DNA of 63,660 nucleotides, counting the filler. It is 4 parts of 4 records of this genome, joined end to end, with 100 filler letters (N's around TTAATTAATTAA, not from the genome) between each part and the next. Parts side by side here need not be neighbours in the genome. Positions count along the whole stretch, not along the records: positions 32,484 to 48,697 come from SRR31156797_293; 3 more parts are not named here. One strand, given 5' to 3'. This document shows positions 5,850 through 48,797 of the stretch, one piece after another (the stretch's first letter is position 1; every line of letters begins with the position of its first letter). Below the pieces are notes generated by a model that was given only the letters and a program-made list of their open reading frames with translations, was not told the origin of the DNA and did not search any database. The position numbers and the translations under genes are program-made.

Positions 5850-5864
5850 TCGAGGAGCATCCGA

Positions 5865-10124: not shown

Positions 10125-10224
10125 NNNNNNNNNNNNNNNNNNNNNNNNNNNNNNNNNNNNNNNNNNNNTTAATTAATTAANNNNNNNNNNNNNNNNNNNN
10201 NNNNNNNNNNNNNNNNNNNNNNNN
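10125..10224. other. Artificial contig linker (N44-TTAATTAATTAA-N44)
   Basis: Six-frame stop spacer flanked by Ns; gene content and apparent taxonomy change across it. Confidence 0.98.
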
Positions 10225-32383: not shown

Positions 32384-32483
32384 NNNNNNNNNNNNNNNNN
32401 NNNNNNNNNNNNNNNNNNNNNNNNNNNTTAATTAATTAANNNNNNNNNNNNNNNNNNNNNNNNNNNNNNNNNNNNNNNNNNNN
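32384..32483. other. Artificial contig linker
   Basis: N44-TTAATTAATTAA-N44. Confidence 0.98.
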
Positions 32484-32728
32484 TCAGTTTTTGCTTTCGA
32501 TCATTTTTCAATAAACAGTTCCTCCAGTTCACACAGAGCATGTAATTGATACGTCAAAGGAATAAACGAACACTCCATTTTTCTGTCGGCACATCCAGGC
32601 GTAAAACTCTTTTTACATAAGCTACTTAAGATTAATAATCCTTAAATAAATCGACCAACTCAATTGTCTCGACAGTGTAGAGACTAAATTCGAAAAATCA
32701 TCTTTGGAGTTAGTTCGGTGCGACAAGC

Positions 32729-34318
32729 TTATACCCCCCTATAAACATTATCACAATCACATGTTATTTTTTTTGCCTTAGCTGAATAATCACCGACTTT
32801 GTCAGCGTTATACAGCCTCTGGAAATATTCATTTGCTCTACGACGATCTCCGATGATGTAATAATACTGTCCAAGGTGGAATAGGCTGAATAGATCAAAG
32901 GCATCTATAGCCAAAGCTTGATTATAAAAACTGAGAGCAAGAAGATCATCACCATTTAATGAATGCGCCCATGCTAACTTGTTATATATAACCAAAGCTT
33001 CTGGCTTCTCGGATCTCACTTCTTCGAGAAGCTTGATCGATTGCCGGTAATCACCGTCTAATCCGTACGCTATCGCGAGCTTGAATTTTGAATAGGTGCT
33101 TGGGCTTATTTTTACCAACCTATTGTAAATCTCGATTGCTTTCTCATAATGCTGCTCATCGACATAAAGGGAACCGAGACGTTCAATGGTTTCAATTTTC
33201 TGACGATCTTCAACAGGGTATCCGCGTTCGTAAATTTCCATTAATCTTTCGTAGGCAGCTATTGCTTTTTTTTTGTAGCCGACCCGAATACAGATACCAC
33301 CAAGCATTCTTAAATACTGCGGGTGCTCATCACTGCGATCAACGGCAGCTTCGGCGGCTTCCAAAGCTCCCTGATGATCACCATCCGAGATCTTCTTCTT
33401 AGCAAGTTCAAGGTAATACAAAGGACTTGATGACGGAGGTTGAAATTCCTGCTTGATAGAAACTCTTGAAGGAAGACCAGCGACAACATTGCTGCTGGTC
33501 AAGGTATCCATGCAACGGTCAACATCCGCTCTCAACTCACCGACATTCTGGTACCTTTTTTCTGGCCTCCGAGCCATAGCTTTCAAAATCAAATTTTCAA
33601 GATCTGAGGGGATATCAGAATTGACTTCACGAGGTTTTGCAATATTCAAACCCGTCAATAACTGGTGTGGGCTTGTATAAGGAAGCGAGCCGGTGGTCAT
33701 CTCATACAGGAGCACCCCGAGCGAATATATGTCTGACACCTTGCTTCGCTTTCCCTCAAGGGCCACTTCAGGAGCCATATACGATTCGGTTCCATGCCGT
33801 TTGGTCCAAACCCATGCATCTTCAAATCGTCGGCTGACACCAAAATCAGTAATTTTGGCTTTGTTGCTATCTTTCGCAATTAAGATATTTTCCGGCTTAA
33901 GATCATTGTGTGATATATTTCTCTGATGAACTGCGGCAAGACCATCCAATATATTTATGAGCCATTCCAACATCTGCTTGAATGAAAGATTGACTGTGTT
34001 ATTGGGTCCTTGCAAAATAGCTGAAAGGCTGAAGCCGTCAACAAATTCCATTTCGATAAAAAACAGATCGCAGATATTATGAAAAGCATAGACCTGAACA
34101 ATATTCGGATGGATGATTCCACGAACAATATCTGCTTCTTTCCGTAAAACTTTTTCGCCTTTTTCTTGGTCTTTTGGAACTTTTATGGCAACATGCTTGC
34201 CATCCGATAAACGTTCTGCTCTCCAAACCTCGCCAAAACTTCCTTTACCGACTTCTTCTATAAGCCTAAAGCGATCTCCAAGCAGTTCGTTTTTCTTAGT
34301 CCTGAAAAAGATACCCAT
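32729..34318 (-). CDS. Hanks-type Ser/Thr protein kinase with C-terminal TPR repeats (soluble)
   Basis: GKGSFGEV, VAIK, HPNIV, HNDLKPEN, DFG, GTESYMAPE, SDIYSLG. The C-terminal ~230 aa has TPR-like repeats (e.g. LGSLYVDEQHYEKAIEIYNRLVKISP). No TM segment; GGAGG RBS; TAATG overlap with the upstream gene. Confidence 0.93.
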   Translation of the reverse strand: MGIFFRTKKNELLGDRFRLIEEVGKGSFGEVWRAERLSDGKHVAIKVPKDQEKGEKVLRKEADIVRGIIHPNIVQVYAFHNICDLFFIEMEFVDGFSLSAILQGPNNTVNLSFKQMLEWLINILDGLAAVHQRNISHNDLKPENILIAKDSNKAKITDFGVSRRFEDAWVWTKRHGTESYMAPEVALEGKRSKVSDIYSLGVLLYEMTTGSLPYTSPHQLLTGLNIAKPREVNSDIPSDLENLILKAMARRPEKRYQNVGELRADVDRCMDTLTSSNVVAGLPSRVSIKQEFQPPSSSPLYYLELAKKKISDGDHQGALEAAEAAVDRSDEHPQYLRMLGGICIRVGYKKKAIAAYERLMEIYERGYPVEDRQKIETIERLGSLYVDEQHYEKAIEIYNRLVKISPSTYSKFKLAIAYGLDGDYRQSIKLLEEVRSEKPEALVIYNKLAWAHSLNGDDLLALSFYNQALAIDAFDLFSLFHLGQYYYIIGDRRRANEYFQRLYNADKVGDYSAKAKKITCDCDNVYRGV

Positions 34319-34932
34319 TAGCGTATTCCTCCAGATAAATACCGTTCGTTACGCATATCCCGAAGGAATTCTCCAAACACAAGATGCTGCGAATCTCTTG
34401 AGTTTTTCATTACACATTTTATTACCATTAAAGGAGTCACCGCCTTGGGGACTACGATACCGTTTCGCCTGAAACTGGAACCGTAAGGGGCAACAACACA
34501 ATCCATATTTCTGGGCATTGAACCAGACTTTACCCAGTAAACAAGGACCGCTAATTCAAGTGACTCACTTAGCCCCGATGTAATAGCCAAGTTTTCAATC
34601 TTTTGCTTGAGTTTCTTTTCATCCCCTTTTTCAAATCTCTCAAACTCGAAAGCGATCCTCGGTGACAGATCCTTTTTATCAAACCATACAGAGTCAGCCC
34701 TAATATCTCCGATGCCATGAAATGATTCATTGATACTCACAGGGCACTCTGTAATTGCTGAATAACCTGCTTTCATACCGCAGCTCGACAGGTACGTCAA
34801 AAAATGAGAGTGAATTGTAACCCCTCTATCTGGAATTCCAGCCTCCAGAAGCATGGGAAAACTCTCTGCCATCAATGCCTGGTCAGTAACGGCAGAAAAA
34901 ACCATTTCACTAATTTTTACGCTTCTGTTCAT
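34318..34932 (-). CDS. Hypothetical protein, probable PD-(D/E)XK restriction-endonuclease-like fold
   Basis: AITECPV...IRADSVWF...IAFEFER gives an E...D...ExE pattern on predicted beta strands. Likely start is ATG at 34932 (TAATG overlap with herA, GGAG RBS). Confidence 0.6.
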   Translation of the reverse strand: MNRSVKISEMVFSAVTDQALMAESFPMLLEAGIPDRGVTIHSHFLTYLSSCGMKAGYSAITECPVSINESFHGIGDIRADSVWFDKKDLSPRIAFEFERFEKGDEKKLKQKIENLAITSGLSESLELAVLVYWVKSGSMPRNMDCVVAPYGSSFRRNGIVVPKAVTPLMVIKCVMKNSRDSQHLVFGEFLRDMRNERYLSGGIR

Positions 34933-36626
34933 TAAATCTCCGGTTTTCCCCAACGTTCACATACCTTTGGTGATTCACCCCCATGAACAAGGGCTTTTGT
35001 GCCTACTTTAACCACAAGAGGAGCGATAATTGCCCGACCGCAAATTAATGTTTCACCAGTTGAAAGCGTTGGTAATTCAGCAAGATCTGCGGCAGAAAAA
35101 TAATCCGATGTCTTCTGTATGAATCGTTGATCATCCGGATTCTTAATTCGCATGGCGACAATAGTATTACACTGACTGGTAACATCAGAATCCAGCTTGC
35201 TTGGCCGCTGACTTACAATGGCGAATCCGACACCGAATTTTCGCCCCTCGGCAGCAATACGTTTAATTATGTTCTTTGAAATACTAGACTCTCCATTGGG
35301 AGCGAAATTATGGCCTTCTTCGTAAATTATAAAGGAGGGCCGTATAGGACGACTCTTGTCTCCTGCGGCCTTCATCAATTCACTGGATATTAACGCCACA
35401 ATGACCTGTCTTGCAGTATTCGAGAGCCCTTGAAGATCCACAATACAAAGGCGGCCAAACGATTCGTTATCGTCTCCCACCATTTTGTAGACATCGAAGG
35501 GTTCACCGGCCGCACGTGTGAAAAAACTTTGGGCTTCGTTAATCATTCTGCGTAAACGGATGGCGGCAATGTTCGCACTTCCTCCCTTGAGAGCGCTGGC
35601 TTCTCCCGGACTGCCTGATTCCGCAACCCAGCTTTTCAACCGATCAAGGTCGTCCAGTACGGAAAACAGCTCTTGTATGTCTCGAGGTTCGTCAAAATTT
35701 TCCTTCCAGTACCTTAGGGCTACATCTAAAACCCGTTGCTGCGGTTCCGTTAATCCCGGCAATACACCTGAGAATTCATCTACATCGAAGTGATCGAGCT
35801 GAAGCGCCAGATTCTGATTTTTACCGGCATATTTTTCGGAAAAGCTTCTGAGTTGAGGCGTGAATACTGTTATGCCAGCACCTTTTTCCTGAAGGACCTG
35901 CATTCTTTTCTGAATTTCAACAAGTTTCTCACGGTCTTTCACATCCTCTACGGAATCAAACCGATCATTAAAGTTAAGCGTTCCGCCTCGAAGGGCCTTT
36001 CCATATTCACCATGAGGATCAAAAACCACCACAGAAGCATTTAACTGGGCGACAAGGCGTTCAATGATTCGACCGACCGTGTAGCTTTTTCCCGCACCAG
36101 TCATTGCTAAGACTGCCAAGTGTTCGGTTACCAATGTATTTGCATCGAGATAGACGGGGACGACATTTGCACCTTTCTCATACCCTACGAGATTGCCCAG
36201 ATGAATGCTTGTATCTTCAGAAAAGTCATAAAATTTTGTCAGGAAATCGTAATCTACACTATAAACCTTTGTACCCGGGTTAAGAGGTCTGCGCGGGATT
36301 CGGATTTCACCTGTATATGGGTCTTTGTACCCAACAAGCTCAATTGTTCCATACACTGTCTCCCCGGACACTTTTGAGTGCGGCAGCAGTTCAACCTCAC
36401 TGATCCCTTCACCAAGGGCCGGATTAAAAAGAATGCTGCTTCTGGACAAGGAAACAATCCTTCCCAGCACGTCCATGTTTTGATCATTTTCTCGCTCTTG
36501 ATGTGCAATCCTAACGAATTCGCCACGTCTCGCCGAAAAGCTGTTTCTGAGCGCAATGGTCAATTTATCCGGTTGCCCTGTATTCCCAACCAGTTTACCT
36601 ATGAAACTGTCTTGACTCTTTTTCAT
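34932..36626 (-). CDS. herA: HerA-family DNA translocase/helicase ATPase with N-terminal HAS barrel
   Basis: HLAVLAMTGAGKS (Walker A), VFDPHGEY, IIYEEGHNF (Walker B), EGRKFG, VSQRPS, SQCNT; N-terminal beta-barrel (RGEFV, VLGRI). Confidence 0.93.
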   Translation of the reverse strand: MKKSQDSFIGKLVGNTGQPDKLTIALRNSFSARRGEFVRIAHQERENDQNMDVLGRIVSLSRSSILFNPALGEGISEVELLPHSKVSGETVYGTIELVGYKDPYTGEIRIPRRPLNPGTKVYSVDYDFLTKFYDFSEDTSIHLGNLVGYEKGANVVPVYLDANTLVTEHLAVLAMTGAGKSYTVGRIIERLVAQLNASVVVFDPHGEYGKALRGGTLNFNDRFDSVEDVKDREKLVEIQKRMQVLQEKGAGITVFTPQLRSFSEKYAGKNQNLALQLDHFDVDEFSGVLPGLTEPQQRVLDVALRYWKENFDEPRDIQELFSVLDDLDRLKSWVAESGSPGEASALKGGSANIAAIRLRRMINEAQSFFTRAAGEPFDVYKMVGDDNESFGRLCIVDLQGLSNTARQVIVALISSELMKAAGDKSRPIRPSFIIYEEGHNFAPNGESSISKNIIKRIAAEGRKFGVGFAIVSQRPSKLDSDVTSQCNTIVAMRIKNPDDQRFIQKTSDYFSAADLAELPTLSTGETLICGRAIIAPLVVKVGTKALVHGGESPKVCERWGKPEI

Positions 36627-37771
36627 GATTCTACCTCTTCCTGAATTGTGTCGATACCTTCAAGCCATGTCTGATCAACTTCTTTGTCTCTAAGCATTGC
36701 AAGAGTTGACTTTAAATAGCTGATTAGCACCTCCCTAGGCATACGAACGAGCTGTTCGGCAAACCACAGAGGAAGCGGCTTCATTTTTGGATTGTCATGT
36801 ATGGTTAAATACGAAATCAGGCCTGCCAGCTCATCAAGGCTTTCCGATGTCCAGCTTTCCCGTTTTCCAATGGTTTCCACTTTCCAGATAGGTGTTCTAA
36901 GACCTACTTGAAGATGAAATCCAACCAGGCCATGCTCCGATACAAGCTTGGGCTCAAAGCGTTTCATATATCTACTTACGGATTCGTAGTAGTATGCGGC
37001 GGTTCTGCGACCTGCCTTCAATGTACCTTTCAGGAAACGCAGAATCCCCACCCGGCGAAGTTGCCCCCAGTCCTCCCGAATAAGGTTCACGATTTTGTCG
37101 TCAATAGACTCAGGACTGCCTTCTTGACCTTTTTCTCTGATCGCATTCAGTACAGCACTGTTTAAATCATGCTTTTTTTTAAGGGATACAAGAAATGGCC
37201 CATCCGGATTATTTGGGAAAAAATCATTCAGATGCCGTTGCCAGAACTCTCCCATTACATCAAGCAATGCCTGCCACTCTTCCTGAACATCCTCTTCCTC
37301 AAGATAGAGACTTTGCTCAGCCCTGGATACCAAGAGAGGAATATCGACAAAGATGATATCCGGTTTCGTATCAAGACTCATCAAATCTGAAAGCAACCGA
37401 TAGACAAGGATAAACTCTTTCCACACGAGCCGTTCTGATGCCCCAAGAAAGTTCATGTCGTTGATGTCGACTCTACTGTCCTGCAGGCCTTCCCGGACCT
37501 CATTATTGGCAACGACCAGATCATGCCTGAGTGCTGCTGCGCCGTAAAGCACCCCCCCCAAAGCGGGCATGCTTCTGCTTTTGGATGAAATGCCAACCGC
37601 ATAAACTTTTTCATGGGTACCTTGATCGATATTTCTAATCAGACCTCCGTGATGAAACAGCGGGCCTTTTGAATCTACATAACGCATCTTGTTCGCCAGT
37701 TTGCCTGCGGTGCCGGGCAAGCGCAGGCTCATGGCCGCTGTTAATGCGCGTGACATTTCAACGTTTTTCAT
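36623..37771 (-). CDS. nurA: NurA-family (RNase H fold) protein with a degenerate first catalytic motif
   Basis: Coupled to herA by an ATGA overlap. YAVGISS sits at the AVDGS position, IIFVDIPL at the xDGxL position, and there is a C-terminal PLPLWFAEQLV motif. Confidence 0.72.
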   Translation of the reverse strand: MKNVEMSRALTAAMSLRLPGTAGKLANKMRYVDSKGPLFHHGGLIRNIDQGTHEKVYAVGISSKSRSMPALGGVLYGAAALRHDLVVANNEVREGLQDSRVDINDMNFLGASERLVWKEFILVYRLLSDLMSLDTKPDIIFVDIPLLVSRAEQSLYLEEEDVQEEWQALLDVMGEFWQRHLNDFFPNNPDGPFLVSLKKKHDLNSAVLNAIREKGQEGSPESIDDKIVNLIREDWGQLRRVGILRFLKGTLKAGRRTAAYYYESVSRYMKRFEPKLVSEHGLVGFHLQVGLRTPIWKVETIGKRESWTSESLDELAGLISYLTIHDNPKMKPLPLWFAEQLVRMPREVLISYLKSTLAMLRDKEVDQTWLEGIDTIQEEVES

Positions 37772-38640
37772 GAATCAGCCTCCTCTTCTTCAAGCATTTC
37801 CTTTATTTCTCTCGCATAGGAATAGTGCCCAGCTTGATCGATGTAGTCTTCCAGACTTGATATCAAATTTTCGCCTGTTGCATCAAGCTTCAACGCAAGC
37901 CGTTCTATCGCAAGCCGAATGATTTCGACATCACACTCAAGAGTGAAGAACCGGGACATTTCAGCAAAAATCCTGTCCGAAGCAGTGCTATTGCAGGCGA
38001 ATGACAGAATAGCGACAGCCTGCAATACACTTTCTTCAATCGCATCAGACGCGTCTTTCGAATCCCCTGTGACTGGATTTTTTTTGTTTTCCCAGTCCAG
38101 CAGCAATCTAAGAAGGGATTCCCGATCCTCCTCATTTGTCATTCCACTGTAAGAAAGCAATTTCAGGGTAGTAATGAAAACCGCTCCCGAAGTGTTTTTT
38201 GGTTGATATTTGAGGAGGATGGTCTCTTTATTAGAGTCGACGCCCATGATGCCGGAAGAGAATGAAGAACAAACAATGCCATCAGACCAGATCTCATATT
38301 CACTTTTGGAACTGGGTCCTTCAAACCCTGAAGGTATACAAATGGATGACGCCTTGCGCTTTTTCACGACAATTGAAACCGGAGCCTCAATTGCATTGCC
38401 AATATCGGTATCAACCGGAGGGTTTACGATGATTAATCCACTCCCATTTTTATATTGGCTGTTTGCCAGTTTACGGACCGTGCCGACAAAATCATCAATG
38501 CCTTTGGACCCCAGCAATACACATGACGCATCTTTCATGCTGAGTGCTTCATCGAGCGAAACAAATTCTATTTCTGCCGTATGTTCCAGAACCGATGATT
38601 CGAACCGATCTTTTTGAACATCAAGAATTATGGTTTTCAT
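37768..38640 (-). CDS. Hypothetical protein (290 aa), possible class I glutamine-amidotransferase-like fold plus helical C-terminus
   Basis: ATGA overlaps at both ends and a GGAG RBS support a real gene. The fold guess rests on CVLLG, NGSGLIIV, GAVFITT and LLRLLLDW. Confidence 0.7.
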   Translation of the reverse strand: MKTIILDVQKDRFESSVLEHTAEIEFVSLDEALSMKDASCVLLGSKGIDDFVGTVRKLANSQYKNGSGLIIVNPPVDTDIGNAIEAPVSIVVKKRKASSICIPSGFEGPSSKSEYEIWSDGIVCSSFSSGIMGVDSNKETILLKYQPKNTSGAVFITTLKLLSYSGMTNEEDRESLLRLLLDWENKKNPVTGDSKDASDAIEESVLQAVAILSFACNSTASDRIFAEMSRFFTLECDVEIIRLAIERLALKLDATGENLISSLEDYIDQAGHYSYAREIKEMLEEEEADS

Positions 38641-41600
38641 CGCAGCTCCAATCTTGTTCTGATGAGTTTCATCTTTTTCAGAGCCCTGATAGCCTCTTCG
38701 TGATCCGGATGTTCCTCTTCGCTGTAGGTTCCGTCACTTAAACCTTTATAGATATCGGCCCACAACTCAAACGACACAGGATAACCGGACTGTTCGAAAA
38801 TATCGTTACCTTCGGAAATCACCTTTGTATTGAATGCCTCATATGCCATCTTGGTCTTCAGATAGGTTTCCTCAGGCTTTGGTTCATCCATGATACTTTT
38901 TCTCTCAGATTGTAATAGCTTGTTCAATGCCTGAAGTTGAGTTCTACGGATGATATTCAACAAATCCGATTTGATCGTATCCAGTCGATCTGTAATATTC
39001 TGTTGCATTGGCGGGATTTTTGACTCACAAGCATCGACTTCATTTTCCAGCATTGTAAGAAGCTCGTCTTCTGCAGTATCGTCGCACTGGGCTTGGATCT
39101 GACTTTCCAGTCCGCCGGAAATCATTCCGTTGTATTTTTGAATTTCCGCTTTTATCCCGCATAAATCAGACAGGATTTCCTGAGGTGCGTCCTTAGTAAA
39201 ATCCGACAATTGCTTCCAGACGCTATCAGTGCCTTCGAATGTCTGAATAACCGACTCCCAACGTTTCCGGAGATCAACAAATCTCGAATAGAAGCTATCT
39301 GACATATCCGGTGTTACGAGGTCAGCCAAAGCAGATAGGCGTTCCCAAGCTGACTCGTATTTAGAATCCACAAGATATTGGTCTATCAATAGCTTATAAT
39401 TGCCAGCCTTAATCGTTGCCATGCAGGTCATGGATGGAGCCCCCATGCCTTTTAACGCATTTTCCAACTCGTTCTGAATCGCCTTGACAGGCAATGTCAG
39501 AGGGGCAATGGGAAACGGTTTGCCAGAAGCAAATTTGAATTCGTTGCTGTCCTTGATAATTTGATTGATCTCGGACAGAATCTCTTCCCGTTTGAAAAGG
39601 AACTGTTTTTTCAGCCAGCTCAGGAATGAAACCTTCTCCCACAAAGAAAACGTATCATACTTTCGTTCAAATAGGCCAATCTGAGCCGCAACACATTCGA
39701 ACTCCACATTCTTGCTCCCGATATCCAGGGGGCACACTTCGAGGATCCGTTTTTCAATTTGAAGAACCTGCGCAACCAGATCAGTGAACGTATCCTCCGT
39801 CAATGAATGAACGGAAGGGGCATTCAATATTTTGAAATCTATCGCCTTTATTTTCTTTTCAGCATCATCAAGCTTCTGACTGGCGTCCGGATACGAGGCC
39901 TTCAATAAAATGCCTGCCTGTGTAGGGAAAAGGCCCTCGCAATTTTTGATGACATTTTTGCATTCATTTTTTAGCCATTTAGAAGCAGCTTCCCTGCGGA
40001 TTTCCAATTGATTCTTATCAATTGCCCGGAAGAGATCACCGCCGGTCTGACGAACAACGCCCAACCCGATCATAAGCTCAAGAATCTGTCCCATCTGCTG
40101 GACAGACTTGATTTCCTTTTCAGGAACAATAAAGAAAAAGTTTTTAGCCAGCTTGTTGGCGGAAGTCTGAGTTTTCAGCTCACGCAGAATAGAAAAAAAA
40201 CAACGCGGCACCCTTGGCTTATAATCCGTCAGGATCTCCAACAGGTCTCCGTAATTCCATGCCGTCGGAGGATTCATATTTTTCTTGGCGGCCTGCCTGC
40301 AGTTTTCAAATTCAACATCACTCAAAGGACCGCCATGGTCTTCATGGGCTGCATCCAGGGAATTGTTGGTTGCAAGCATATATCGGTACCCCTTGGCAAA
40401 ATCAGCCACAGGGATTCTTTTGGGTTTACTCCAAATAGGAGCAATCAGATAACCTTCCTGCCTGACCTTGGTTGCCCAGGTTCTGGCCTTGGAAATCCAG
40501 TCATCCTGATATGATTTCAGCAGACCATTGGCAACTTTGCTGAGCCTTGCTTCCTGTGGATCAAATACAGACCCCCGGGCTGAGTACTTGATCAGAAAAT
40601 CTTCTTCCTGCACCACAAGCCTGGAGACCAGGACACATCGTTTAAGGATCGGATATTTATCAAGCTGCCCTTCAAAGGCAGCGTAGTCTGCGGATGCAGG
40701 GAATAATACGATAATGGGATGCACACGCTCGGTGCCAAGGTAAGTACTCAGTTTCCTGATGGTGTCATCCGAGTCGAGGCAATAAGCGATTGTAAGTTTC
40801 CCATCCGGCGTGACTCGAAAGCCATCCACTGACGGAGACATAAAACGGGAACTGAACCCCTGATGGGAAATACCTGAAAGAGCTTGAGCCGTAGCTGTTT
40901 TTTCAAGTGACTCATCCAACAACTTGGCCAGCCCCAAACACACTGCTGCGGTCCGTTTGGCCTTTGAGCCGGATAATGCCTTTACATGCTCTTCCAGCGT
41001 ATGTTCGAAACGTCCGTCCTTGAAAAAGCGAACGCTTTCCGTATTTGCATTCAGAAGCTTATTGAACTCTTTCCACAGCCTGAATGCCATTCCGAGGAAT
41101 CGACTGTCTTCAACTCTATATTCCGGACTCAGAAAAACCCGGTGGAGAGCTTCGGCGGCAAACTCTATACCGTCTCTCGGGTAAAGAGCCGTCAATTGTT
41201 CACCCCATTGTTCAAGATCGGTGTAGATGACAATTTCAGAGGACTTGTTACTGCCTGCCGTAACCGAAAAGGCTTTCAGGGCTTCCAGCAGACCGACCAC
41301 GGACAGCTGGCATGTGGAAGTGAAATAGGTGTCCGCTTTGCCTTCAACCGGCTTAAACCCATACTCAGGACGGATCAATTCACTTGCAAGGGTCGACGCA
41401 TCGATGTGGACCATGCTCAGTTCAGCAAAGGTCTTGCCGCGCCCCGCAATTTCATGATCAAGAAGTGTTTCGGCTACGGCCGGAGAAATATTGTTCGGAC
41501 AGGTTCCGCCAACACCTACAGGCAGCTGGCCATAGACGACCCGTTCAACGATTTCCTGGGAAACATCCTTGATCCTGCCGATCAACGGCATGGCGGCGTT

Positions 41601-42698
41601 GTCGTTAAAAATGTGGTCTGCACGGGCGTCTGTTTTGGCAAAATCCCGAATCAATGCCCACGAACTGATCTCTTCGCTTCTTTCTTTATGCCTGGCGTAA
41701 GTTTCATGCACCGAAGACATGATAACATTCAACCAGCCAAAATTCCTGTTTGCGGAGAGGAATGCGGCTTGCAAGGTGCCTGCCGGATATTCAACCGAGA
41801 CAGGGTCTGCCAATGATTCTTTTATGTGGTTCACGTAACGTCCCACATCGGTAACCTGATTCGGTTCAATGGTTACGCTACTGGCACGACGCAGGTTCGG
41901 TCCGATTTGAATCTGGTCCCTCATACCGAGGGAACAAAGCAACAGGAAGTTCACATAGGGGTGCTGGCTGCGCCAGTTTTCGTGTTTGATAACCTCGGAC
42001 ACCATCAAGAGATATTCATCGTCGATACTGGGTGGAGGATCATCCCGAAGACCACGTTTAAGGTCGCCGGGGGTTTCCACTTCGTCAACAATTACCCAGA
42101 GGTGCCTGATTCCTTTTGGTTCGAGGATTTCCATAACAGCATCAAGCCGCTCTGAATAATCCTGTTCCCCATTCTTTATACAGGTCGTCAATTGTTCAAG
42201 TGAAATGCCTTTGGCATGAAGGGTATTGGTTATGTCCGTATAAAGCGCCTTAACACCGCCGGATTTAACATCACACTCAAGGGTTTGCCGCAGCGCTTCA
42301 ACTGTAAGACGAGCAACCCATGTCGGCGCATCAAGCTCATCATCACAGACGGAGCTGTAACGGATGTAGACCGGAAGCACTCCGTCGGTCAGGGCCGGTT
42401 CAAGCACCCGGGCCTTCTTGTCATTCCTGTTGTACGGAGCGACCACATATTCATGTTCATTCAGCAGCCACTCATCAACCTGGCCGGTTGCTTCACCGAT
42501 AAGTTCATAGCCGAGACGAGTCTTACCGAGCCCCCAGTCTCCGAATGCCACAAAGAATCCTGCAATATCATGGGTTTGACCGTCCCAGAACGATCGCCGG
42601 AACTGATGCAGTGCGTTAAATACTTGATTTTGTCCAACCATGCAGAAACTTGGTGGATAAAGCGCGACTCCTTTTGCTGCCCAAGGTTTCATTATCAT
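38637..42698 (-). CDS. Large (1353 aa) P-loop ATPase: N-terminal AAA+-like domain, long helical/coiled-coil C-terminus
   Basis: MVGQ, Walker A GDWGLGKT (aa 53-60), Walker B LWVIVDEVE, NFLLLCS strand, NLRR (possible Arg finger); GGAGG RBS 9 nt before the ATG. Confidence 0.82.
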   Translation of the reverse strand: MIMKPWAAKGVALYPPSFCMVGQNQVFNALHQFRRSFWDGQTHDIAGFFVAFGDWGLGKTRLGYELIGEATGQVDEWLLNEHEYVVAPYNRNDKKARVLEPALTDGVLPVYIRYSSVCDDELDAPTWVARLTVEALRQTLECDVKSGGVKALYTDITNTLHAKGISLEQLTTCIKNGEQDYSERLDAVMEILEPKGIRHLWVIVDEVETPGDLKRGLRDDPPPSIDDEYLLMVSEVIKHENWRSQHPYVNFLLLCSLGMRDQIQIGPNLRRASSVTIEPNQVTDVGRYVNHIKESLADPVSVEYPAGTLQAAFLSANRNFGWLNVIMSSVHETYARHKERSEEISSWALIRDFAKTDARADHIFNDNAAMPLIGRIKDVSQEIVERVVYGQLPVGVGGTCPNNISPAVAETLLDHEIAGRGKTFAELSMVHIDASTLASELIRPEYGFKPVEGKADTYFTSTCQLSVVGLLEALKAFSVTAGSNKSSEIVIYTDLEQWGEQLTALYPRDGIEFAAEALHRVFLSPEYRVEDSRFLGMAFRLWKEFNKLLNANTESVRFFKDGRFEHTLEEHVKALSGSKAKRTAAVCLGLAKLLDESLEKTATAQALSGISHQGFSSRFMSPSVDGFRVTPDGKLTIAYCLDSDDTIRKLSTYLGTERVHPIIVLFPASADYAAFEGQLDKYPILKRCVLVSRLVVQEEDFLIKYSARGSVFDPQEARLSKVANGLLKSYQDDWISKARTWATKVRQEGYLIAPIWSKPKRIPVADFAKGYRYMLATNNSLDAAHEDHGGPLSDVEFENCRQAAKKNMNPPTAWNYGDLLEILTDYKPRVPRCFFSILRELKTQTSANKLAKNFFFIVPEKEIKSVQQMGQILELMIGLGVVRQTGGDLFRAIDKNQLEIRREAASKWLKNECKNVIKNCEGLFPTQAGILLKASYPDASQKLDDAEKKIKAIDFKILNAPSVHSLTEDTFTDLVAQVLQIEKRILEVCPLDIGSKNVEFECVAAQIGLFERKYDTFSLWEKVSFLSWLKKQFLFKREEILSEINQIIKDSNEFKFASGKPFPIAPLTLPVKAIQNELENALKGMGAPSMTCMATIKAGNYKLLIDQYLVDSKYESAWERLSALADLVTPDMSDSFYSRFVDLRKRWESVIQTFEGTDSVWKQLSDFTKDAPQEILSDLCGIKAEIQKYNGMISGGLESQIQAQCDDTAEDELLTMLENEVDACESKIPPMQQNITDRLDTIKSDLLNIIRRTQLQALNKLLQSERKSIMDEPKPEETYLKTKMAYEAFNTKVISEGNDIFEQSGYPVSFELWADIYKGLSDGTYSEEEHPDHEEAIRALKKMKLIRTRLELR

Positions 42699-42750
42699 TT
42701 CACTGTTCCTCCGCGAGGTTGTTGTTCGCTTTTATCCCTATAACCGTCCC

Positions 42751-43908
42751 TCATGCGGACGGTGTAAATTCAATTTTCAATCGACGGCAGTTACTGTCTC
42801 CAAACAAACCACGTCCCATTCGGGGTTGACCGGTATGATAGGATTCGATGACCAGCCGGTCTTCATACATGGCTTGACGGACAAAACGGTCCAGCGCCGC
42901 TCCCCGTTCTTCAACCGGAGTACGGCAAAGGTCCCCGAATTTATCCGCAAGCGCACTGACAATGATATAACCATCACTATCAGCAGAAAAATTCAATGCC
43001 TCGACAAACAGTTCATCCGTTGTCTTATTCTGATCATGGCTTCCGGCGGATATGCCGAATGATTCGAGCACATCATTTCCCAATAACTGGCAGACCCGAT
43101 CCGTATCAACATGCCAGCCCCGGGCGTCCCGGGAAAAAAGTCCAATATAAAAGAGCAGCCCGAAACTTTTCTTAATGGCGGAAGAAAGATCCTTGACGGA
43201 TGGCCGGTCAACACGGATACCGCACCATTCGATGGGAAGGCTCAACCCGTGTTCCGACAGTTCAGATATCCATACAGGTCCAAGCGCCATCTCCGCATGC
43301 TCTAAAAGCAGGCTATTGAACTGCCGGCAGTCCCTGGATGTGATATCCAGGTTTGAATTATCTTCGGATACAAAGGACATCCGGCTCTTGGGGAATTTGT
43401 TAAAAACGTCAGCCTGCAACGCCCACCCCTTGAGCATCAAACCAAACAACAAGCGAGTTCTCGGTTCCCGAAGGAGAAGATGCCTGGCCAGCAGATGCAG
43501 CCACGTATCCGGCTCCGCGGAGTTCCCATACGCCCGCCCGAGTTCAATACCGGATTCAGAGACCTCAAATCCCGCACCTGTTTTCCTAATAAAATCGAGA
43601 CCATTTACGCACAATTTCCGGCCGAAGCGCTCGAAGCCCATGGCGTTGACAATGCCATCGATTCCACGTCCCCGAGGTTTACCATTTGTCTTAAAGGTCA
43701 AGGTAGGAGTGATATCAAACAACTCCCGTTCGATTTCCTGTCGTGTATAGATACGGCCTTCTTCCGCTCTGGAAAGCGCTTCCGGATACTCCTGATACCT
43801 TGTCGGGTCATTCCACAAAAACAATTTTGGCAAGGCAACTCTGGAAATAATCATGAAACCCTCTGGCATGTTTGCCGGCTCTATCACCCTATCTCCAACC
43901 TTCTTCAT
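42751..43908 (-). CDS. Hypothetical protein (385 aa), probably multiple winged-helix domains
   Basis: Long ORF in the operon, overlapping the upstream gene by 20 nt. Helix-then-hairpin patterns: LDFIRKTGAGFEVSESG, FYIGLFSRDARGWHV, DGYIIVSALADKF. Confidence 0.7.
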   Translation of the reverse strand: MKKVGDRVIEPANMPEGFMIISRVALPKLFLWNDPTRYQEYPEALSRAEEGRIYTRQEIERELFDITPTLTFKTNGKPRGRGIDGIVNAMGFERFGRKLCVNGLDFIRKTGAGFEVSESGIELGRAYGNSAEPDTWLHLLARHLLLREPRTRLLFGLMLKGWALQADVFNKFPKSRMSFVSEDNSNLDITSRDCRQFNSLLLEHAEMALGPVWISELSEHGLSLPIEWCGIRVDRPSVKDLSSAIKKSFGLLFYIGLFSRDARGWHVDTDRVCQLLGNDVLESFGISAGSHDQNKTTDELFVEALNFSADSDGYIIVSALADKFGDLCRTPVEERGAALDRFVRQAMYEDRLVIESYHTGQPRMGRGLFGDSNCRRLKIEFTPSA

Positions 43909-45175
43909 GATAACTTCGATCTGCTGCCCCCTTCACTTTTTGAATCATTCGCTCCTGCAACGACTTACCCGGACGAAACACCGATCGAAGCCTGCCTGCC
44001 ATAAGGGTGGACTGAAAATCGGAGTGAAGAACGATGGTGTCATCAGACTGGTCCAGAATATCCAGAGCCAAAAGGTTCTCCATCATATTGACTACCTGCT
44101 CATCATTCAGGGGGCTGGCCGCAAAACAATCCTGGCATTGAACAAATACAGGCAGCCACTCTTTAAGCAGCCCGATTTTTCCGGTTTCATAAAAGAGCTC
44201 CACCTCGCACAGTTCCGCGCCGGGCCGCAGGTACAGCTCAAAGCTTGATAAAGATACGGCCTTGGCCCGGTAATGGTTAATCGCCAATTGGATTACCGCT
44301 TTGTAAAACGGTTGCTCTATCAGGGCATCCTGAAGGGCGAATTTTGACTTTCCGGCAGTGCTGAAATCCCATAAAGGCTTTCCATTCCCATCGAACAGTG
44401 CGATACCGCTCTGTATCTCCTTCCGCCTGATATTCCATGGCGCGGGCGTTATGTTCATATGCTGTGCGCTACCATGGGCGTCCGGCAACGTGATCACCGG
44501 GAGTATTGCCGGAGTACGGCCCTGGTCATCACTGCTTTCGGGAACGGCATAAGGCACAAACCGTTTCAAAACAAAATCGAAAAGATCCTGGGGGCGTGCA
44601 GTCCGGCCCAGCAGCAATTGATTCCAGCTGTTCAAGGAATCAGGAGTTAGAAATTGGGAGTCAGAATATTTCGACTCCCGGTATCGATTGAATTTTTCGT
44701 TAATTTCATCGCTGGTGCCATCGATCAGTCGATAACCATTGGTTTCAATTTCATCAAGTATCCGGTTAATGGAAGGCAAAAACGGCAACAATTCATTGCC
44801 GGACCATTTCTCCACATCTGCAAGAAGGCCCTGTTTGGCGGCAGAGGCTAGCCCCTCTGCAAGAATGGAAATCAGGTAGTTGCGGTACTCCGGGATTTGA
44901 AACAGGATGGTTCGAACGGCTTTTTCAAAATCTGTTTGAATAAGGCTCCACAACCCGGGAGACAAACTCCACCCACCGGCCCCGTTATCCTCAACGGCCT
45001 GGCGAACAACACCCGCCGTTTCAAAAAGCGCCAACCAGTCCCGACCACCGGCAATGCCATTCAGCTCAAAACGGGAGATCTCACCCAGGGAGACAAGATT
45101 CGTTATGATTTTCCGTGCGGTCTTCAGGTTGAAATTCACGGATCGCACTCCTAGCGCCTCAACCAGATTAGACAC
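43889..45175 (-). CDS. Hypothetical protein (428 aa), probable N- and C-terminal winged-helix domains
   Basis: GTG start overlaps the Schlafen gene by 25 nt. wHTH-like patterns WLALFETAGVVRQ...GWSLS and MENLLALDILDQSDDTIVL. Confidence 0.7.
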   Translation of the reverse strand: MSNLVEALGVRSVNFNLKTARKIITNLVSLGEISRFELNGIAGGRDWLALFETAGVVRQAVEDNGAGGWSLSPGLWSLIQTDFEKAVRTILFQIPEYRNYLISILAEGLASAAKQGLLADVEKWSGNELLPFLPSINRILDEIETNGYRLIDGTSDEINEKFNRYRESKYSDSQFLTPDSLNSWNQLLLGRTARPQDLFDFVLKRFVPYAVPESSDDQGRTPAILPVITLPDAHGSAQHMNITPAPWNIRRKEIQSGIALFDGNGKPLWDFSTAGKSKFALQDALIEQPFYKAVIQLAINHYRAKAVSLSSFELYLRPGAELCEVELFYETGKIGLLKEWLPVFVQCQDCFAASPLNDEQVVNMMENLLALDILDQSDDTIVLHSDFQSTLMAGRLRSVFRPGKSLQERMIQKVKGAADRSYHEEGWR

Positions 45176-46302
45176 TTGAATAAATTTCCAGCCCTGTCAT
45201 CCACGAAATCAATGTTAGGGTAGTTTTCCAGCGCTCTCAATATTCCGGAGCCGTACCCCCGATAAGGGAGAAGCTGATAGGCAAATGATGCCAGTATCGG
45301 ATTTCGTGTGTTTGAATTACCGGCCTTTACATTTTCAACCGTCAAGTTATTGGGAAGATGCCCCGGACTGATAATTTCGATACGGTTGGAAAATACAAAA
45401 ACCCTGACAGGGGCAGATATGAAATAGTCCCGGTGAACAAAGGCATTAACAAGCAGTTCTTCAAAAACAATACGAGGTATCTGAGGTTGTCCCGGACTGT
45501 TGACCGACTGTTCTCCCTGGACATGCCTTATATTGGTCTGAATGAAACCCATGGTCTGCTGAAAAATATCAGCCATTTTACCGGTGATATCCCGGCTGTC
45601 GAGATAGGTGTCGGCTGTTATGCTTTCACCCGGGAATGCGCCGGCTTTTACAATATAGGCAGGCAGCCTGTTTGACGGATTTTTGCTGAAAAGCAACGCC
45701 CCGGTCAGGTTAAGTTCCGCGCCAGAACCCAGGTTCAGGTTGTTGATGGTCTGTTCCAGGGGAAGCTGCTGATTTTCCAGCGTTTCTCCGTAACGTTTCT
45801 TGAAGAACTCACTGAAATAATCCAAATCCAGATCAGCGATGGTCAATCCGCTTGCAGGTGTCTCATCGGCATGAACAAGACCTGAGGATTGAAACAGTCT
45901 CTGTATCTCTTCCCGCGAAGTTGCTCTTCGTTTGTCAGCCCCGCTTTTCACCCAGAACACACCGTTTTTATCCTGGTATGGCTTATTGATGCCCTGGGGT
46001 ATCTCGATAACAAGGATCAAGGTGTCTTGAATTGTCAGAATCTGTGTGGTCGGGTTAATGGCGGGCTTCACATTCTGACTGGCGGCATTGGATATAAGCT
46101 GATTTAAGCGTTGAATATCTGAAGTTTCCAGGCCTGGAATACTTCCATCGTCATCAACGCCGATAAGAATCCTGCCCCCATTCCCGTTGCTGAAGGCAAC
46201 CATTTCAGCCGCCAGCGAATCAGGATTGGTCATATTTTTCTTAAACTGGTGTTCGCTGTCCTCTCCCTGGGACAAGATTTGCATAAGTTCTAGGGTTTCC
46301 AT
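45151..46302 (-). CDS. Schlafen/AlbA_2 domain plus HATPase_c_4-like domain protein
   Basis: GEDSEHQFKK, AFSNGNGGRILIGVDD, ELLVNAFVHRDY, RIEIISPG, RNPILA, GYGSGI. Confidence 0.88.
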   Translation of the reverse strand: METLELMQILSQGEDSEHQFKKNMTNPDSLAAEMVAFSNGNGGRILIGVDDDGSIPGLETSDIQRLNQLISNAASQNVKPAINPTTQILTIQDTLILVIEIPQGINKPYQDKNGVFWVKSGADKRRATSREEIQRLFQSSGLVHADETPASGLTIADLDLDYFSEFFKKRYGETLENQQLPLEQTINNLNLGSGAELNLTGALLFSKNPSNRLPAYIVKAGAFPGESITADTYLDSRDITGKMADIFQQTMGFIQTNIRHVQGEQSVNSPGQPQIPRIVFEELLVNAFVHRDYFISAPVRVFVFSNRIEIISPGHLPNNLTVENVKAGNSNTRNPILASFAYQLLPYRGYGSGILRALENYPNIDFVDDRAGNLFKCLIWLRR

Positions 46303-48697: not shown

Positions 48698-48797
48698 NNN
48701 NNNNNNNNNNNNNNNNNNNNNNNNNNNNNNNNNNNNNNNNNTTAATTAATTAANNNNNNNNNNNNNNNNNNNNNNNNNNNNNNNNNNNNNNNNNNNN
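48698..48797. other. Artificial contig linker
   Basis: N44-TTAATTAATTAA-N44. Confidence 0.98.

Follow-up and report, generated by a model that had tools for sequence, protein, structure and literature searches.

An eight-gene HerA, NurA-fold and kinase cluster as the probable restriction half of a long MADS-like defence operon

The eight genes considered here (g1-g8) are probably, with a probability of about 0.7, the restriction (effector) half of a long, MADS-like defence operon, and the view that they form a co-inherited, multi-gene unit of the defence type, with a predicted anti-phage role, is supported. The sequence-only reading had taken them for a self-contained system that matches nothing known. 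That claim does not survive, because a methylase accompanies the cluster in its relatives, the logic of the whole is that of MADS, and a 'MADS-like' system has already been named.

The contig and the layout of its genes

The window, i.e., the whole 63.6-kb stretch of DNA that was analysed, is made of contigs chained by three N44-TTAATTAATTAA-N44 linkers (10125-10224, 32384-32483 and 48698-48797), and the eight-gene cluster lies on a contig of its own with 16,214 nt (32484-48697). The linker at 32384..32483 is the downstream end of this contig and the linker at 48698..48797 its upstream end, which means that the mrpA fragment beyond the former and the gcvP fragment beyond the latter are no true neighbours of the cluster. 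The contig stops 3.5 kb upstream of g1, within a TrlF gene. A 23,327-nt Logan contig from another assembly, possibly of the same source run, covers the contig in its entirety and continues for 7,113 nt further upstream.

The tight packing of eight co-oriented genes that had been described from the letters was confirmed by the ORF listing, in which g1-g8 are all present on the minus strand with unchanged coordinates, and by the letters at the junctions, where g3/g4, g4/g5 and g5/g6 overlap by ATGA, g6/g7 and g7/g8 by TAATG, and g1/g2 by 20 nt, while a 52-nt gap precedes g3. Shine-Dalgarno sites, noted from the letters at most of the genes, are seen as GGAG-type motifs ahead of g3, g4, g5, g6, g7 and g8. 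The start of g7 was set to the ATG at 34932, giving 204 amino acids, and the TTG (34953) of the ORF lister was set aside. For g1 the most likely start is the GTG at 45139, giving 416 amino acids, since an AGGAG lies ahead of it and related proteins align only from residue 16-20. Scans for promoters and terminators gave no signal above that of shuffled sequences.

All eight frames are open and the catalytic motifs are intact. When g3, g5, g6 and g8 are compared with loci L001-L007, the identity is about 77% for DNA and 86-95% for protein, and this difference, together with the open frames, implies selection. These observations bear on the possibility that the cluster is a decaying remnant which has lost its modification half. 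Such decay does occur, as proved by the fragmentary copy L082, in which a Schlafen gene is flanked by short remnants of the operon's small first gene, of TrlF, of g1 and of g8. In the present case, however, identity is high in protein but not in DNA, the frames and motifs are undamaged, and the break falls exactly on an assembly linker, which makes a remnant unlikely.

The encoded proteins

Of the eight genes, g6 (34932..36626) is the best conserved, with 64-95% identity across phyla. It encodes a stand-alone HerA hexameric translocase of 564 amino acids, in agreement with its earlier label, with Pfam matches to DUF87 (3e-39) and the HAS barrel (2.7e-05), PADLOC matches to HerA (1.2e-56) and mad8 (1.1e-28), and matches to NCBIfam HerA models that all fall under their equivalog cutoffs. 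Its Walker A motif is GAGKS (K180) and its Walker B motif YEEGH (E436/E437). Translationally coupled to it through ATGA is g5 (36623..37771; 382 amino acids), a protein with NurA (RNase H-like) fold. Its AF2 model has a mean pLDDT of 91.6 and a pTM of 0.87, and the Foldseek search of the PDB places NurA from S. solfataricus first (2ygk, E 2e-13, TMt 0.64), followed by further NurA or HerA-NurA entries at ranks 2-9 and 13; in the Atlas, 30 of 30 feature matches fall within the NurA set, with a top score of 0.96. The NurA assignment made from the letters is thereby borne out at the level of fold. In the family alignments the canonical first-strand catalytic Asp of NurA is not evident and Pfam NurA matches one of 33 family members (at 7.4e-4), and g5 may for these reasons be a non-catalytic scaffold. 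D143 is conserved to about 90% in the wide family, and Q97-D98-S99 in the near family.

The last gene, g8 (32729..34318), encodes a Hanks-type Ser/Thr kinase of 529 amino acids, with the kinase at residues ~18-256 and a C-terminal TPR array at ~300-510, as had been proposed. Pfam finds Pkinase (2.2e-49) and several TPR families, and the translation contains GKGSFG, VAIK (K46), HND (D139), DFG (D158) and APE, so that the kinase looks active. The PADLOC match to mad6 (2e-64) is limited to the kinase part, positions 43-318 of 659, and the NCBIfam MAD6 score, 158.9 bits, falls short of the cutoff of 460. Between g6 and g8 lies g7 (34318..34932), a putative PD-(D/E)XK-type nuclease. Searches of Pfam, NCBIfam, PADLOC and PDB sequences returned no match for it, and that part of the earlier label which stands does so by the conserved E...D...ExE...K motif: H41, E62, D80, E96-F-E98-R-F and K111 are invariant in the alignments, also in a distant E. 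coli copy.

The giant ATPase g3 (38637..42698; 1353 amino acids) was rightly named AAA+. Its N-terminal ~400 residues form a module of the ORC/Cdc6-TnsC-RFC-BrxC type, with Walker A GLGKT (K59), Walker B VDEVE (D205/E206) and R270/R271 invariant in the alignments; the alpha/beta and helical domains beyond this module have no counterpart in the PDB. For residues 1-1200 the AF2 model has a pLDDT of 87.5 and a pTM of 0.65, and the best Foldseek matches are TnsC (8e-4), ORC2 and Cdc6/Orc1 (1.2e-3) and the N-terminal part of BrxC (2.8e-3), over about 360-520 columns. These scores are weak (E ~1e-3, TMq 0.14-0.18) because just one third of the model aligns. The Atlas neighbours include AAA_22, ATPase_2 and STAND clusters, and g3 matched nothing in Pfam, NCBIfam, PADLOC or PDB sequences.

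The remaining three proteins, described here from alignments, have no fold assigned. The fastest-evolving gene of the set is g4 (37768..38640; 290 amino acids), which has 27-31% identity to its Actinomycete-clade relatives, where HerA has 84-86%, and which gave no match in Pfam, NCBIfam, PADLOC or PDB sequences. The gene g2 (42751..43908; 385 amino acids) occurs in every related locus that reaches its position and has the conserved motifs LPKLFLW, REPRTR and GQPRMGRGLFG; family and PDB searches gave no match, and hhalign found no similarity to MAD7 or g1. Also fast-evolving is g1 (43889..45175; 416-428 amino acids, depending on the start), with 28-39% identity to distant relatives and no match in family and PDB searches. 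The wHTH labels that the sequence-only reading had given to g1 and g2 thus gained no support from these searches.

Related loci, the methylase and the variable slot

The order and strand of g1-g8 are identical in all 32 related loci, and by tblastn all eight genes are present in 21 of them; among the other 11, eight are truncated where a contig ends and three have no tblastn match for g1 and/or g4. Judged by their record titles, the loci belong to Desulfobacterota, Planctomycetota, Bacillota, Actinomycetota, Myxococcota, Chloroflexota, Gemmatimonadota, Verrucomicrobiota and Gammaproteobacteria, and relatives with 81-88% identity are spread over three phyla. The order is thus conserved across distant taxa, and the arrangement recurs far beyond chance.

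In all 28 related loci with enough upstream flanking sequence, the cluster is preceded on its own strand by an HsdM-like N6-methylase (Pfam N6_Mtase 8e-23, PADLOC MTase_I 2e-116), and in 26 of these there is also an HsdS-like gene. The S gene of L022 and L029 is situated between g5 and g6, which argues for one system rather than two neighbours. The methylase co-evolves with g3, as their identities drop in step: methylase identity is 89-96% where that of g3 is 81-88%, 71-79% where it is 58-62%, 48-50% where it is 34-46%, and 36-37% where it is 23-26%. The S subunit is hypervariable, with 22-65% identity where the methylase keeps 71-97%. The operon comprises 10 genes in the E. coli locus L038, and 12-13 genes in L001 and L009.

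Between this modification pair and g1 there is a variable slot, and the cargo that fills it in relatives (YhcG nuclease/PDC-S02, an AriA/AriB-like pair, a second kinase, an EVE-domain protein) is of known defence type. In the window, the sequence-only reading had placed the cluster directly behind Ppl-like and Schlafen genes, and both were recovered on the minus strand. The Schlafen gene (45151..46302) encodes a Schlafen/AlbA_2 protein of 383 amino acids with an HATPase_c_4 domain (Pfam SLFN_AlbA_2 2.1e-24, HATPase_c_4 4.8e-14). It is the second gene of a two-gene module embedded in the slot, and it occurs in none of the loci L001-L032. The first gene of the module (46290..48697) encodes a TrlF-family (Ppl-like) ABC/SMC-type ATPase (NCBIfam TrlF_fam_ATP 2e-141, profile positions 77-944; Ppl 1.1e-37), the 5' end of which is cut by the contig end. 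It is short of ~84 N-terminal residues compared with the 883-aa copy (ORF 5124-7775) on the metagenome contig L107. Of 80 Schlafen loci, 46 have a TrlF gene immediately upstream, which in five of those 46 is a mere remnant. The gene order on L107 is small gene, M, S, YhcG, TrlF, Schlafen, its methylase is 95% identical to that of L001, and the same layout would here need a further ~5.4 kb ahead of the truncated TrlF gene of the window.

The statement that the locus lacks a methyltransferase is true of the letters, as no methylase or S homologue occurs anywhere in the 63.6-kb window, but the absence is probably explained by a contig that ends too early, and the statement has no bearing on the locus as a whole. 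It is therefore quite improbable that the eight genes are a self-contained, methylase-independent system which senses foreign DNA or DNA ends alone, in the manner proposed for stand-alone DndFGH-type cassettes. The eight intact genes with their conserved catalytic motifs would suit such a system, and DndFGH has been argued to work without a modification module (Rakesh et al. 2024). Against it, the window consists of joined contigs, the one with the cluster stops within TrlF while another assembly runs 7.1 kb further, the methylase is constant in relatives and co-evolves with g3, and L107 has M-S-YhcG-TrlF-Schlafen.

The occurrence of the family is sporadic. Among 301 sampled Streptomyces genomes one is positive, which is the centre genome itself, and the HerA gene is matched in 251 of 5,426 E. 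coli genomes; the distant E. coli copy has McrBC on one side and an integrase on the other. Replication and DNA transfer, too, make use of ORC-like AAA+ and HerA/FtsK proteins. One may therefore consider a housekeeping or mobile-element machine for DNA processing, serving HerA-NurA end resection, replication or the transfer of an integrative element, and the integrase adjoining the E. coli copy would fit this, as would the role of HerA-NurA as the end-resection pair of archaea and Deinococcus (PDB entries; PMC12977600). Such a machine is very improbable in view of the constant association with a type I-like methylase and its hypervariable S subunit, the defence cargo in the slot, the sporadic occurrence, and the lack of a relaxase, a replicase or mre11/rad50 among the conserved genes.

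Proposed working and comparison with known systems

When the cluster is read as the restriction half of a longer operon, the full order of the family would be small gene, HsdM-like N6-adenine methylase, HsdS-like subunit, slot and g1 to g8, with the TrlF-Schlafen module as slot content in the window and the M and S genes expected in the ~7 kb upstream. Judged by homology, the M/S pair would methylate adenines in a bipartite target and thereby mark self DNA. The ORC/BrxC-like g3, together with g1, g2 and g4, for which a sensor role is guessed from their fast evolution, would then sense unmarked DNA or an infection cue and constitute an ATP-dependent licensing switch. The PD-(D/E)XK-like g7 would make an entry cut, at which the HerA hexamer and the NurA-fold g5 would load to degrade the DNA processively. 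The TPR-kinase g8, in which the catalytic motifs are present, may gate the complex by phosphorylation or, alternatively, add a second, abortive layer by the same means. Taken together, this would be an HsdR-less, type I-like restriction-modification system with a HerA-NurA machine as its nuclease-motor, controlled by the AAA+ protein and the kinase, i.e., the logic of MADS built from other proteins.

The likeness to type I restriction-modification lies in the HsdM-like methylase and the separate, hypervariable, two-TRD HsdS-like subunit that head the operon of the relatives; the difference is that no HsdR-type SF2 helicase-nuclease is conserved, and eight other proteins take its place. With the HerA-NurA complex (PDB 2ygk, 3tai, 7f6d, 9x1n) the cluster shares a HAS-barrel HerA that adjoins, and is coupled to, a NurA-fold protein. 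Here, however, the pair, which is predicted from the genes, shares its methylase-linked operon with a kinase, a giant AAA+ protein and a further nuclease, mre11/rad50 are absent, and g5 has no evident counterpart to the first catalytic Asp of NurA.

HerA/FtsK 'capture' systems with Orc/Cdc6 AAA+, REase and wHTH proteins have been described (Rakesh, Aravind, Krishnan, NAR 2024, PMC10853773), as have Schlafen-HATPase genes as common add-ons of BREX-type loci (PMC10853773). An ORC/Cdc6-type AAA+ protein, a HerA-type translocase, a small REase-like protein and fast-evolving accessories, as in that description, are found here too, whereas NurA, TPR, HsdM and 'specificity subunit' are absent from the main text of PMC10853773; its Supplementary Data may list the eight-gene neighbourhood. 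The N-terminus of g3 resembles the N-terminal part of BREX BrxC as presented in PMC12839542, but the eight-gene family has neither PglZ nor a PglX-type methylase.

The closest parallel in layout is the methylation-associated defence system, MADS, with genes mad1-mad8 (Maestri et al., bioRxiv 10.1101/2023.03.30.534895; NAR 2026 PMC13662399). As described there, it likewise combines an m6A methylase and its specificity subunit with a Ser/Thr kinase and with an ATPase-nuclease pair in which the ATPase is of the HerA/FtsK type, and it may also hold an OLD-like ATPase-Toprim pair, to which the AriA/B-like genes in L001 and L017 correspond. This common layout, the mad6 and mad8 matches of g8 and g6, and weak PADLOC matches of mad2, mad5 and mad3 to upstream genes of L001 and L009 would be expected of a canonical mad1-mad8 member missed by the family models. 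Yet the mad7 model matches no window protein at E up to 10, and it finds mad7 in none of five genomes that carry the eight-gene family, compared with eight of 301 Streptomyces genomes; in hhalign comparisons g1, g2 and g5 show no likeness to MAD7, nor does g3 to MAD8 (probability 0.1-0.14), and the MAD6 score of g8 stays far below its cutoff. A true Streptomyces MADS, L037, has a 1395-aa MAD6 with NERD/PglW-kinase-SspF-like architecture where the present cluster has a 529-aa kinase-TPR protein, and a 1849-aa MAD8 with a 565-aa, SspG-like MAD7 where the present cluster has a stand-alone HAS-barrel HerA with a NurA-fold partner, and the latter adds the four family-specific proteins g1, g2, g3 and g4 and the small g7. 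Canonical membership is, in consequence, highly improbable.

The restriction half of a MADS-like operon remains the preferred reading, and the name itself is in use. The preprint on MADS also presents madl1-madl11, a putative 11-gene 'MADS-like' system from defence islands of Pseudomonas aeruginosa, with a predicted N6-methyltransferase and, according to its authors, some domains in common with MADS (Maestri et al., bioRxiv 10.1101/2023.03.30.534895). There is no P. aeruginosa member among the named matches to the eight-gene family. What the two have in common, as far as that account goes, is a long operon (11 genes compared with 10 in L038 and 12-13 in L001 and L009) with an N6-methyltransferase, and by this description, by which alone they are set side by side, the operon is likely the 'MADS-like' system already named in 2023.

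The gene cluster and its contig

The cluster consists of eight minus-strand genes, here called g1 to g8 in transcription order, which run from g1 (43889-45175) to g8 (32729-34318), and an ORF listing returns all eight where the sequence-only reading had placed them. The close packing that it described is likewise read directly from the junction letters: ATGA overlaps join g3 to g4, g4 to g5 and g5 to g6, TAATG overlaps join g6 to g7 and g7 to g8, the overlap between g1 and g2 is 20 nt long, and the sole gap, of 52 nt, precedes g3. Shine-Dalgarno sites, said to stand before most of the genes, are of the GGAG type and occur in front of six of the eight. The g7 gene starts at the ATG at 34932, which gives a protein of 204 aa. 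For g1 the start is most likely the GTG at 45139, downstream of an AGGAG, because the alignments of its relatives begin only at residue 16-20. When the region is scanned for promoters and terminators, the counts equal those in shuffles.

Linkers that read N44-TTAATTAATTAA-N44 occur three times in the window, at 10125-10224, 32384-32483 and 48698-48797, and the window therefore consists of four or more contigs, from a draft assembly or a metagenome-assembled genome, joined in a chain. From the linkers it follows that gcvP and TrlF, as well as g8 and mrpA, are false neighbours, and that the ORFs abutting a linker are cut; the "truncated" gcvP and mrpA beside the cluster are mere ends of other contigs. 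The linkers at these places also led to the rejection of another explanation, an inserted island that was flanked by truncated gcvP and mrpA and had lost its methylase and specificity genes. The contig of the cluster (32484-48697) is 16,214 nt long, and its upstream end falls within the TrlF gene. A contig of 23,327 nt from another assembly (run X1), possibly the window's own source, contains this whole stretch with zero differences and reaches 7,113 nt further upstream. When draft assemblies are concatenated, false neighbours are created, and those parts of an operon that fall out of view seem to be absent.

Conservation of the cluster and its link to a methylase

The family of g3, a 1353-aa AAA+ ATPase, is small in nearby sequence space: the 8,000 candidates that were scored include 61 clusters of it, every one named "hypothetical". 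A scan with one genome per species gives 32 loci from about nine phyla, and the gene order is conserved across these distant taxa, with the same order and strand in 32 of 32. All eight genes are present in 21 of the loci, another 8 are cut by contig ends, and g1 and/or g4 are undetectable in the remaining 3 (L021, L022 and L032). The identity to proteins of the Actinomycete clade is highest for HerA, encoded by g6 (84-86%), followed by g5 (66-68%), g8 (63-66%), g3 (58-59%), g7 (54-58%), g2 (41-44%), g1 (32-36%) and g4 (27-31%).

The sequence-only reading had taken the lack of a methyltransferase to be a property of the system. A tblastn survey of the window finds no homologue of the HsdM-like methylase gene (M) or the HsdS-like specificity gene (S) of the related loci, but M precedes the cluster in these relatives and the window's contig ends inside TrlF. 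In the two relatives L001 and L009, a small gene, M, S and variable cargo lie upstream of the cluster, on the same strand and overlapping, and their M matches Pfam N6_Mtase and the PADLOC model MTase_I (2e-116). By tblastn, M is found in 28 of the 32 loci, that is, in 28 of the 28 with enough upstream flank; in the four loci that lack it (L003, L008, L021 and L023), the upstream flank is no longer than 1.6 kb. S, found by tblastn in 26 of the 28 loci that carry M, is hypervariable, with 22-65% identity as against 71-97% for M.

The identity of M follows that of g3 over the whole range of loci, and in the most divergent sub-clade S lies between g5 and HerA, not beside M (L022:14175-15635 and L029:10565-11953). 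When the methylase varies in step with the ATPase and the specificity gene can sit inside the "restriction" genes, it follows that M/S and g1-g8 are one system. A metagenome contig, L107, carries the small gene, M, S, YhcG, TrlF (883 aa) and Schlafen up to its own contig end, with M 95% identical to that of L001, and what is missing from the window is predicted to have this layout, which would take up about 5.4 kb. The undescribed, methylase-free system of eight genes is an artefact of the contig end. The small conserved first gene (L001:483-959 and homologues) stands in front of M in most loci. Its product, about 100-160 aa long, matches no family, shows 29-89% identity among loci and may be a regulator.

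The family is rare in Streptomyces, where it occurs in 1 of 301 sampled genomes, the centre genome itself, and is rarer than MADS, the methylation-associated defence system (8 of 301). In E. coli, the HerA gene has blastn matches in 251 of 5,426 complete genomes, one of which was inspected. Its ten-gene copy (NZ_CP019455.1, 2531310-2546726) has McrBC genes on one side and a tyrosine integrase on the other, and its order is small gene, HsdM, S, proteins of 428, 1428, 282 and 385 aa, HerA, a 180-aa protein and the kinase; in RefSeq, HsdM, S, HerA and the kinase are named and the other six are "hypothetical". Comparison of the E. coli 428-aa protein with g1 and with g2 by hhalign gives no similarity. 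With its distant copy in E. coli, the family can be tested directly in a laboratory host.

Proteins of the cluster and cargo of the variable slot

Among the eight genes, matches to curated families are confined to g6 and g8. The HerA label of g6 is secured by the Pfam families DUF87 (3e-39), HAS-barrel (2.7e-05, slightly below the gathering score) and HerA_C (3.5e-4), together with a Walker A motif GAGKS and a Walker B motif YEEGH, and the protein is a stand-alone HerA of 564 aa with a HAS barrel. The Ser/Thr kinase-TPR label of g8 is equally sound: a Hanks-type kinase is followed by TPRs, and the motifs GKGSFG, VAIK with K46, HND with D139, DFG with D158 and APE are all found. For g1, g2, g3, g4, g5 and g7 nothing meaningful is found in Pfam, NCBIfam, PADLOC v2 or PDB sequences, and their profiles match PDB chains at chance level only. 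The same holds when the window's g1, g2, g4 and g7 and their distant relatives are searched against Pfam at E up to 5, and hhalign detects no similarity between g1 and g2.

The fold of g5 is that of NurA. Its AlphaFold2 model has a pLDDT of 91.6, its top PDB matches are NurA structures (2ygk, E 2e-13, TM-score 0.64 by target), with further matches to NurA of T. kodakarensis, P. furiosus and D. radiodurans, and 30 of 30 protein-atlas matches fall within the NurA set. By sequence, the Pfam NurA family is reached by 1 of 33 family members, at 7e-4. The genes of g5 and HerA are adjacent and overlap by ATGA. The fold part of the earlier NurA label therefore stands. The first-strand Asp, one of the canonical catalytic acidic residues of NurA, is not evident in g5, which may be either catalytic or a non-catalytic scaffold. 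The first strand reads AVGISS, with no Asp, D143 is conserved to about 90%, and the near family keeps QDS. A predicted complex of HerA and g5 scored 0.00, a value that was computed without alignments and is informative in neither direction.

That g3 is a giant AAA+ ATPase agrees with its invariant motifs, a Walker A GLGKT (K59), a Walker B VDEVE and an RR pair, and with a model of residues 1-1200 (pLDDT 87.5), the first ~400 residues of which resemble the AAA+ parts of ORC/Cdc6, TnsC, RFC and BrxC in a structure search, weakly (E 8e-4 to 3e-3). The atlas neighbours (AAA_22, ATPase_2 and STAND clusters) are consistent with an AAA+ fold. Beyond the first ~400 residues the structure search found no PDB counterpart; the helix-helix-hairpin units of the model near 865-892 and 1065-1103 are suggestive only as regards a wHTH or an inactive restriction endonuclease insert. 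In g7 the residues H41, E62, D80, E96-x-E98 and K111 are invariant and kept in the 28%-identical E. coli copy. This pattern is PD-(D/E)XK-like and agrees with the earlier label as far as the motif goes, which makes g7 a candidate nuclease by motif only. Taken together, the earlier assignments are largely correct for four genes out of eight.

Upstream of g1 lies a variable slot, filled in the window (45151-48697) by overlapping genes for TrlF (Ppl-like) and for a Schlafen protein with AlbA_2 and HATPase_c_4 domains. The pair is recurrent: among 80 Schlafen loci (L039-L118), TrlF stands immediately upstream of Schlafen in 46, 5 of these as remnants only. Homologues of g1-g7 are found in none of the other 78 Schlafen loci, and distant kinase matches (26-32% identity) occur in L048 and L059 only. 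Since TrlF-Schlafen otherwise occurs without g1-g8, the pair is cargo in the variable slot, and it is a candidate stand-alone two-gene defence module. In relatives, the slot holds YhcG (L001, L002, L004 and L107) or an AriA/AriB-like pair (L001 and L017). A second, shorter Ser/Thr kinase of 380 aa (L009:4200-5342) lies between S and g1 in 18 loci, so that most family members have two kinases; in the window, it is absent between Schlafen and g1. Most loci of the Actinomycete clade also have, between g1 and g2, a 755-aa protein with EVE and DUF7669 domains (L009:6559-8826). EVE/PUA-like domains are readers of modified bases, and such a protein would suit a methylation-reading system.

At another Schlafen locus (L082:9780-11627), an intact Schlafen gene lies amid short pieces that remain of the small first gene, the TrlF C-terminus, g1 (residues 9-58) and g8 (residues 314-345). 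It looks like a whole operon that has collapsed, with Schlafen alone kept.

Proposed working and relation to known systems

From the observed folds, motifs and linkage we infer the activities in the following scheme, which is the most likely working of the system. The wider reading, in which the family is a kind of methylation-guided immunity in its own right, next to R-M, BREX and MADS, and has a landing pad for further modules, has a probability of about one in three. In the scheme, M/S would put m6A marks on self DNA. The ORC/BrxC-like giant g3 and the three fast-evolving orphans g1, g2 and g4 would use ATP to sense unmarked DNA or to license the attack on it. The small PD-(D/E)XK-like g7 would cut this DNA, and HerA with g5 would translocate on it and resect it, with the TPR-kinase g8 gating the complex as a checkpoint or supplying a second, abortive layer. 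The gap between the two halves of the operon would serve as a landing pad for auxiliary modules under operon control: TrlF-Schlafen in the window and L107, and elsewhere PARIS-like AriA/B, YhcG, the second kinase or the EVE reader. If this is true, methylation-guided restriction has been built at least twice from unrelated parts, from DndFGH-like ones in MADS and from HerA-NurA with an ORC/BrxC-like ATPase in this family, which would also be the first case of an archaeal-type HerA-NurA resection machine serving as the killing arm of an R-M-like system. Since g1, g2, g3, g4 and g7 have no Pfam, NCBIfam or PADLOC v2 model, current defence finders would miss the family.

Neither HsdR nor another SF2 helicase occurs among the eight genes or among those upstream in L001 and L009, the one ResIII-type trace in a Pfam search of the eight being a sub-threshold match within HerA, and the family is therefore not type I R-M. 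It is not BREX either, since PglZ and PglX are absent from the ten proteins of the contig and from the ten that lie upstream in L001 and L009; the likeness to BREX is limited to the AAA+ head of g3, which weakly resembles the N-terminal part of BrxC (E 2.8e-3). With the HerA-NurA pair the family shares both members, a HAS-barrel/DUF87 HerA and an adjacent NurA-fold partner. Capture systems combine an Orc/Cdc6 AAA+ protein, which has an inserted inactive REase and a C-terminal wHTH, with an active REase and HerA/FtsK (PMC10853773), and the theme of AAA+, HerA, REase and fast-evolving partners, as set out in the main text of that paper, is common to both. Here, the ORC/Cdc6/TnsC-type AAA+ head is seen by fold, HerA is present and the REase is seen by motif only; NurA, TPR, HsdM and a specificity subunit have no mention in that main text. 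MANTIS/Gao_RL was set aside as an identity, being, in the accessible part of its description, a different four-gene system.

MADS (mad1-mad8) is similar in logic. PADLOC mad6 matches g8 and mad8 matches g6, covering the kinase and ATPase cores alone, and mad2 and mad5 match the M and S genes of relatives weakly (2e-15 and 4e-26), below the type I models. In the MacSyFinder model of the MADS authors, as the available text of their preprint gives it, MAD7 is mandatory (Maestri et al., bioRxiv 10.1101/2023.03.30.534895); the PADLOC mad7 model, which as a positive control found 8 of 301 Streptomyces genomes, has no match among the window proteins, with E up to 10 allowed, and finds none of 5 genomes in which the family occurs. 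By hhalign g1, g2 and g5 show no similarity to MAD7 (probability 0.1-0.14), and profile comparison shows none between g3 and MAD8. A true MADS locus of Streptomyces (L037) has mad2-mad5, MAD6, an SspG-like MAD7 and MAD8. Its MAD6 is a 1395-aa protein with PglW- and SspF-like parts, whereas g8, which has TPRs instead, matches only positions 43-318 of the 659 in the PADLOC mad6 profile and reaches 158.9 bits with the NCBIfam MAD6 model, the cutoff of which is 460. MAD8 of the same locus is 1849 aa long, in contrast to the stand-alone 564-aa HerA g6 (mad8 ATPase profile, 1.1e-28). From these mismatches it follows that the family has the logic of MADS without its core proteins.

The claim that the cluster matches no known system is not supported, since MADS logic is shared and the family can probably be equated with a system already named. 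In the part of the preprint available, a "MADS-like" system of 11 genes (madl1-11) with an N6-methylase is reported from 10 of 444 P. aeruginosa islands (Maestri et al., bioRxiv 10.1101/2023.03.30.534895), and this one-line mention is all that was found in the literature on the gene set. No P. aeruginosa member occurs among the named homologues of our family. The family is likely to be this system, for which the source gives the gene content in its Fig. 2c and Supplementary Notes. In relation to known systems, the locus belongs to a widespread putative defence family that is MADS-like and methylation-linked, and it has a TrlF-Schlafen insert.
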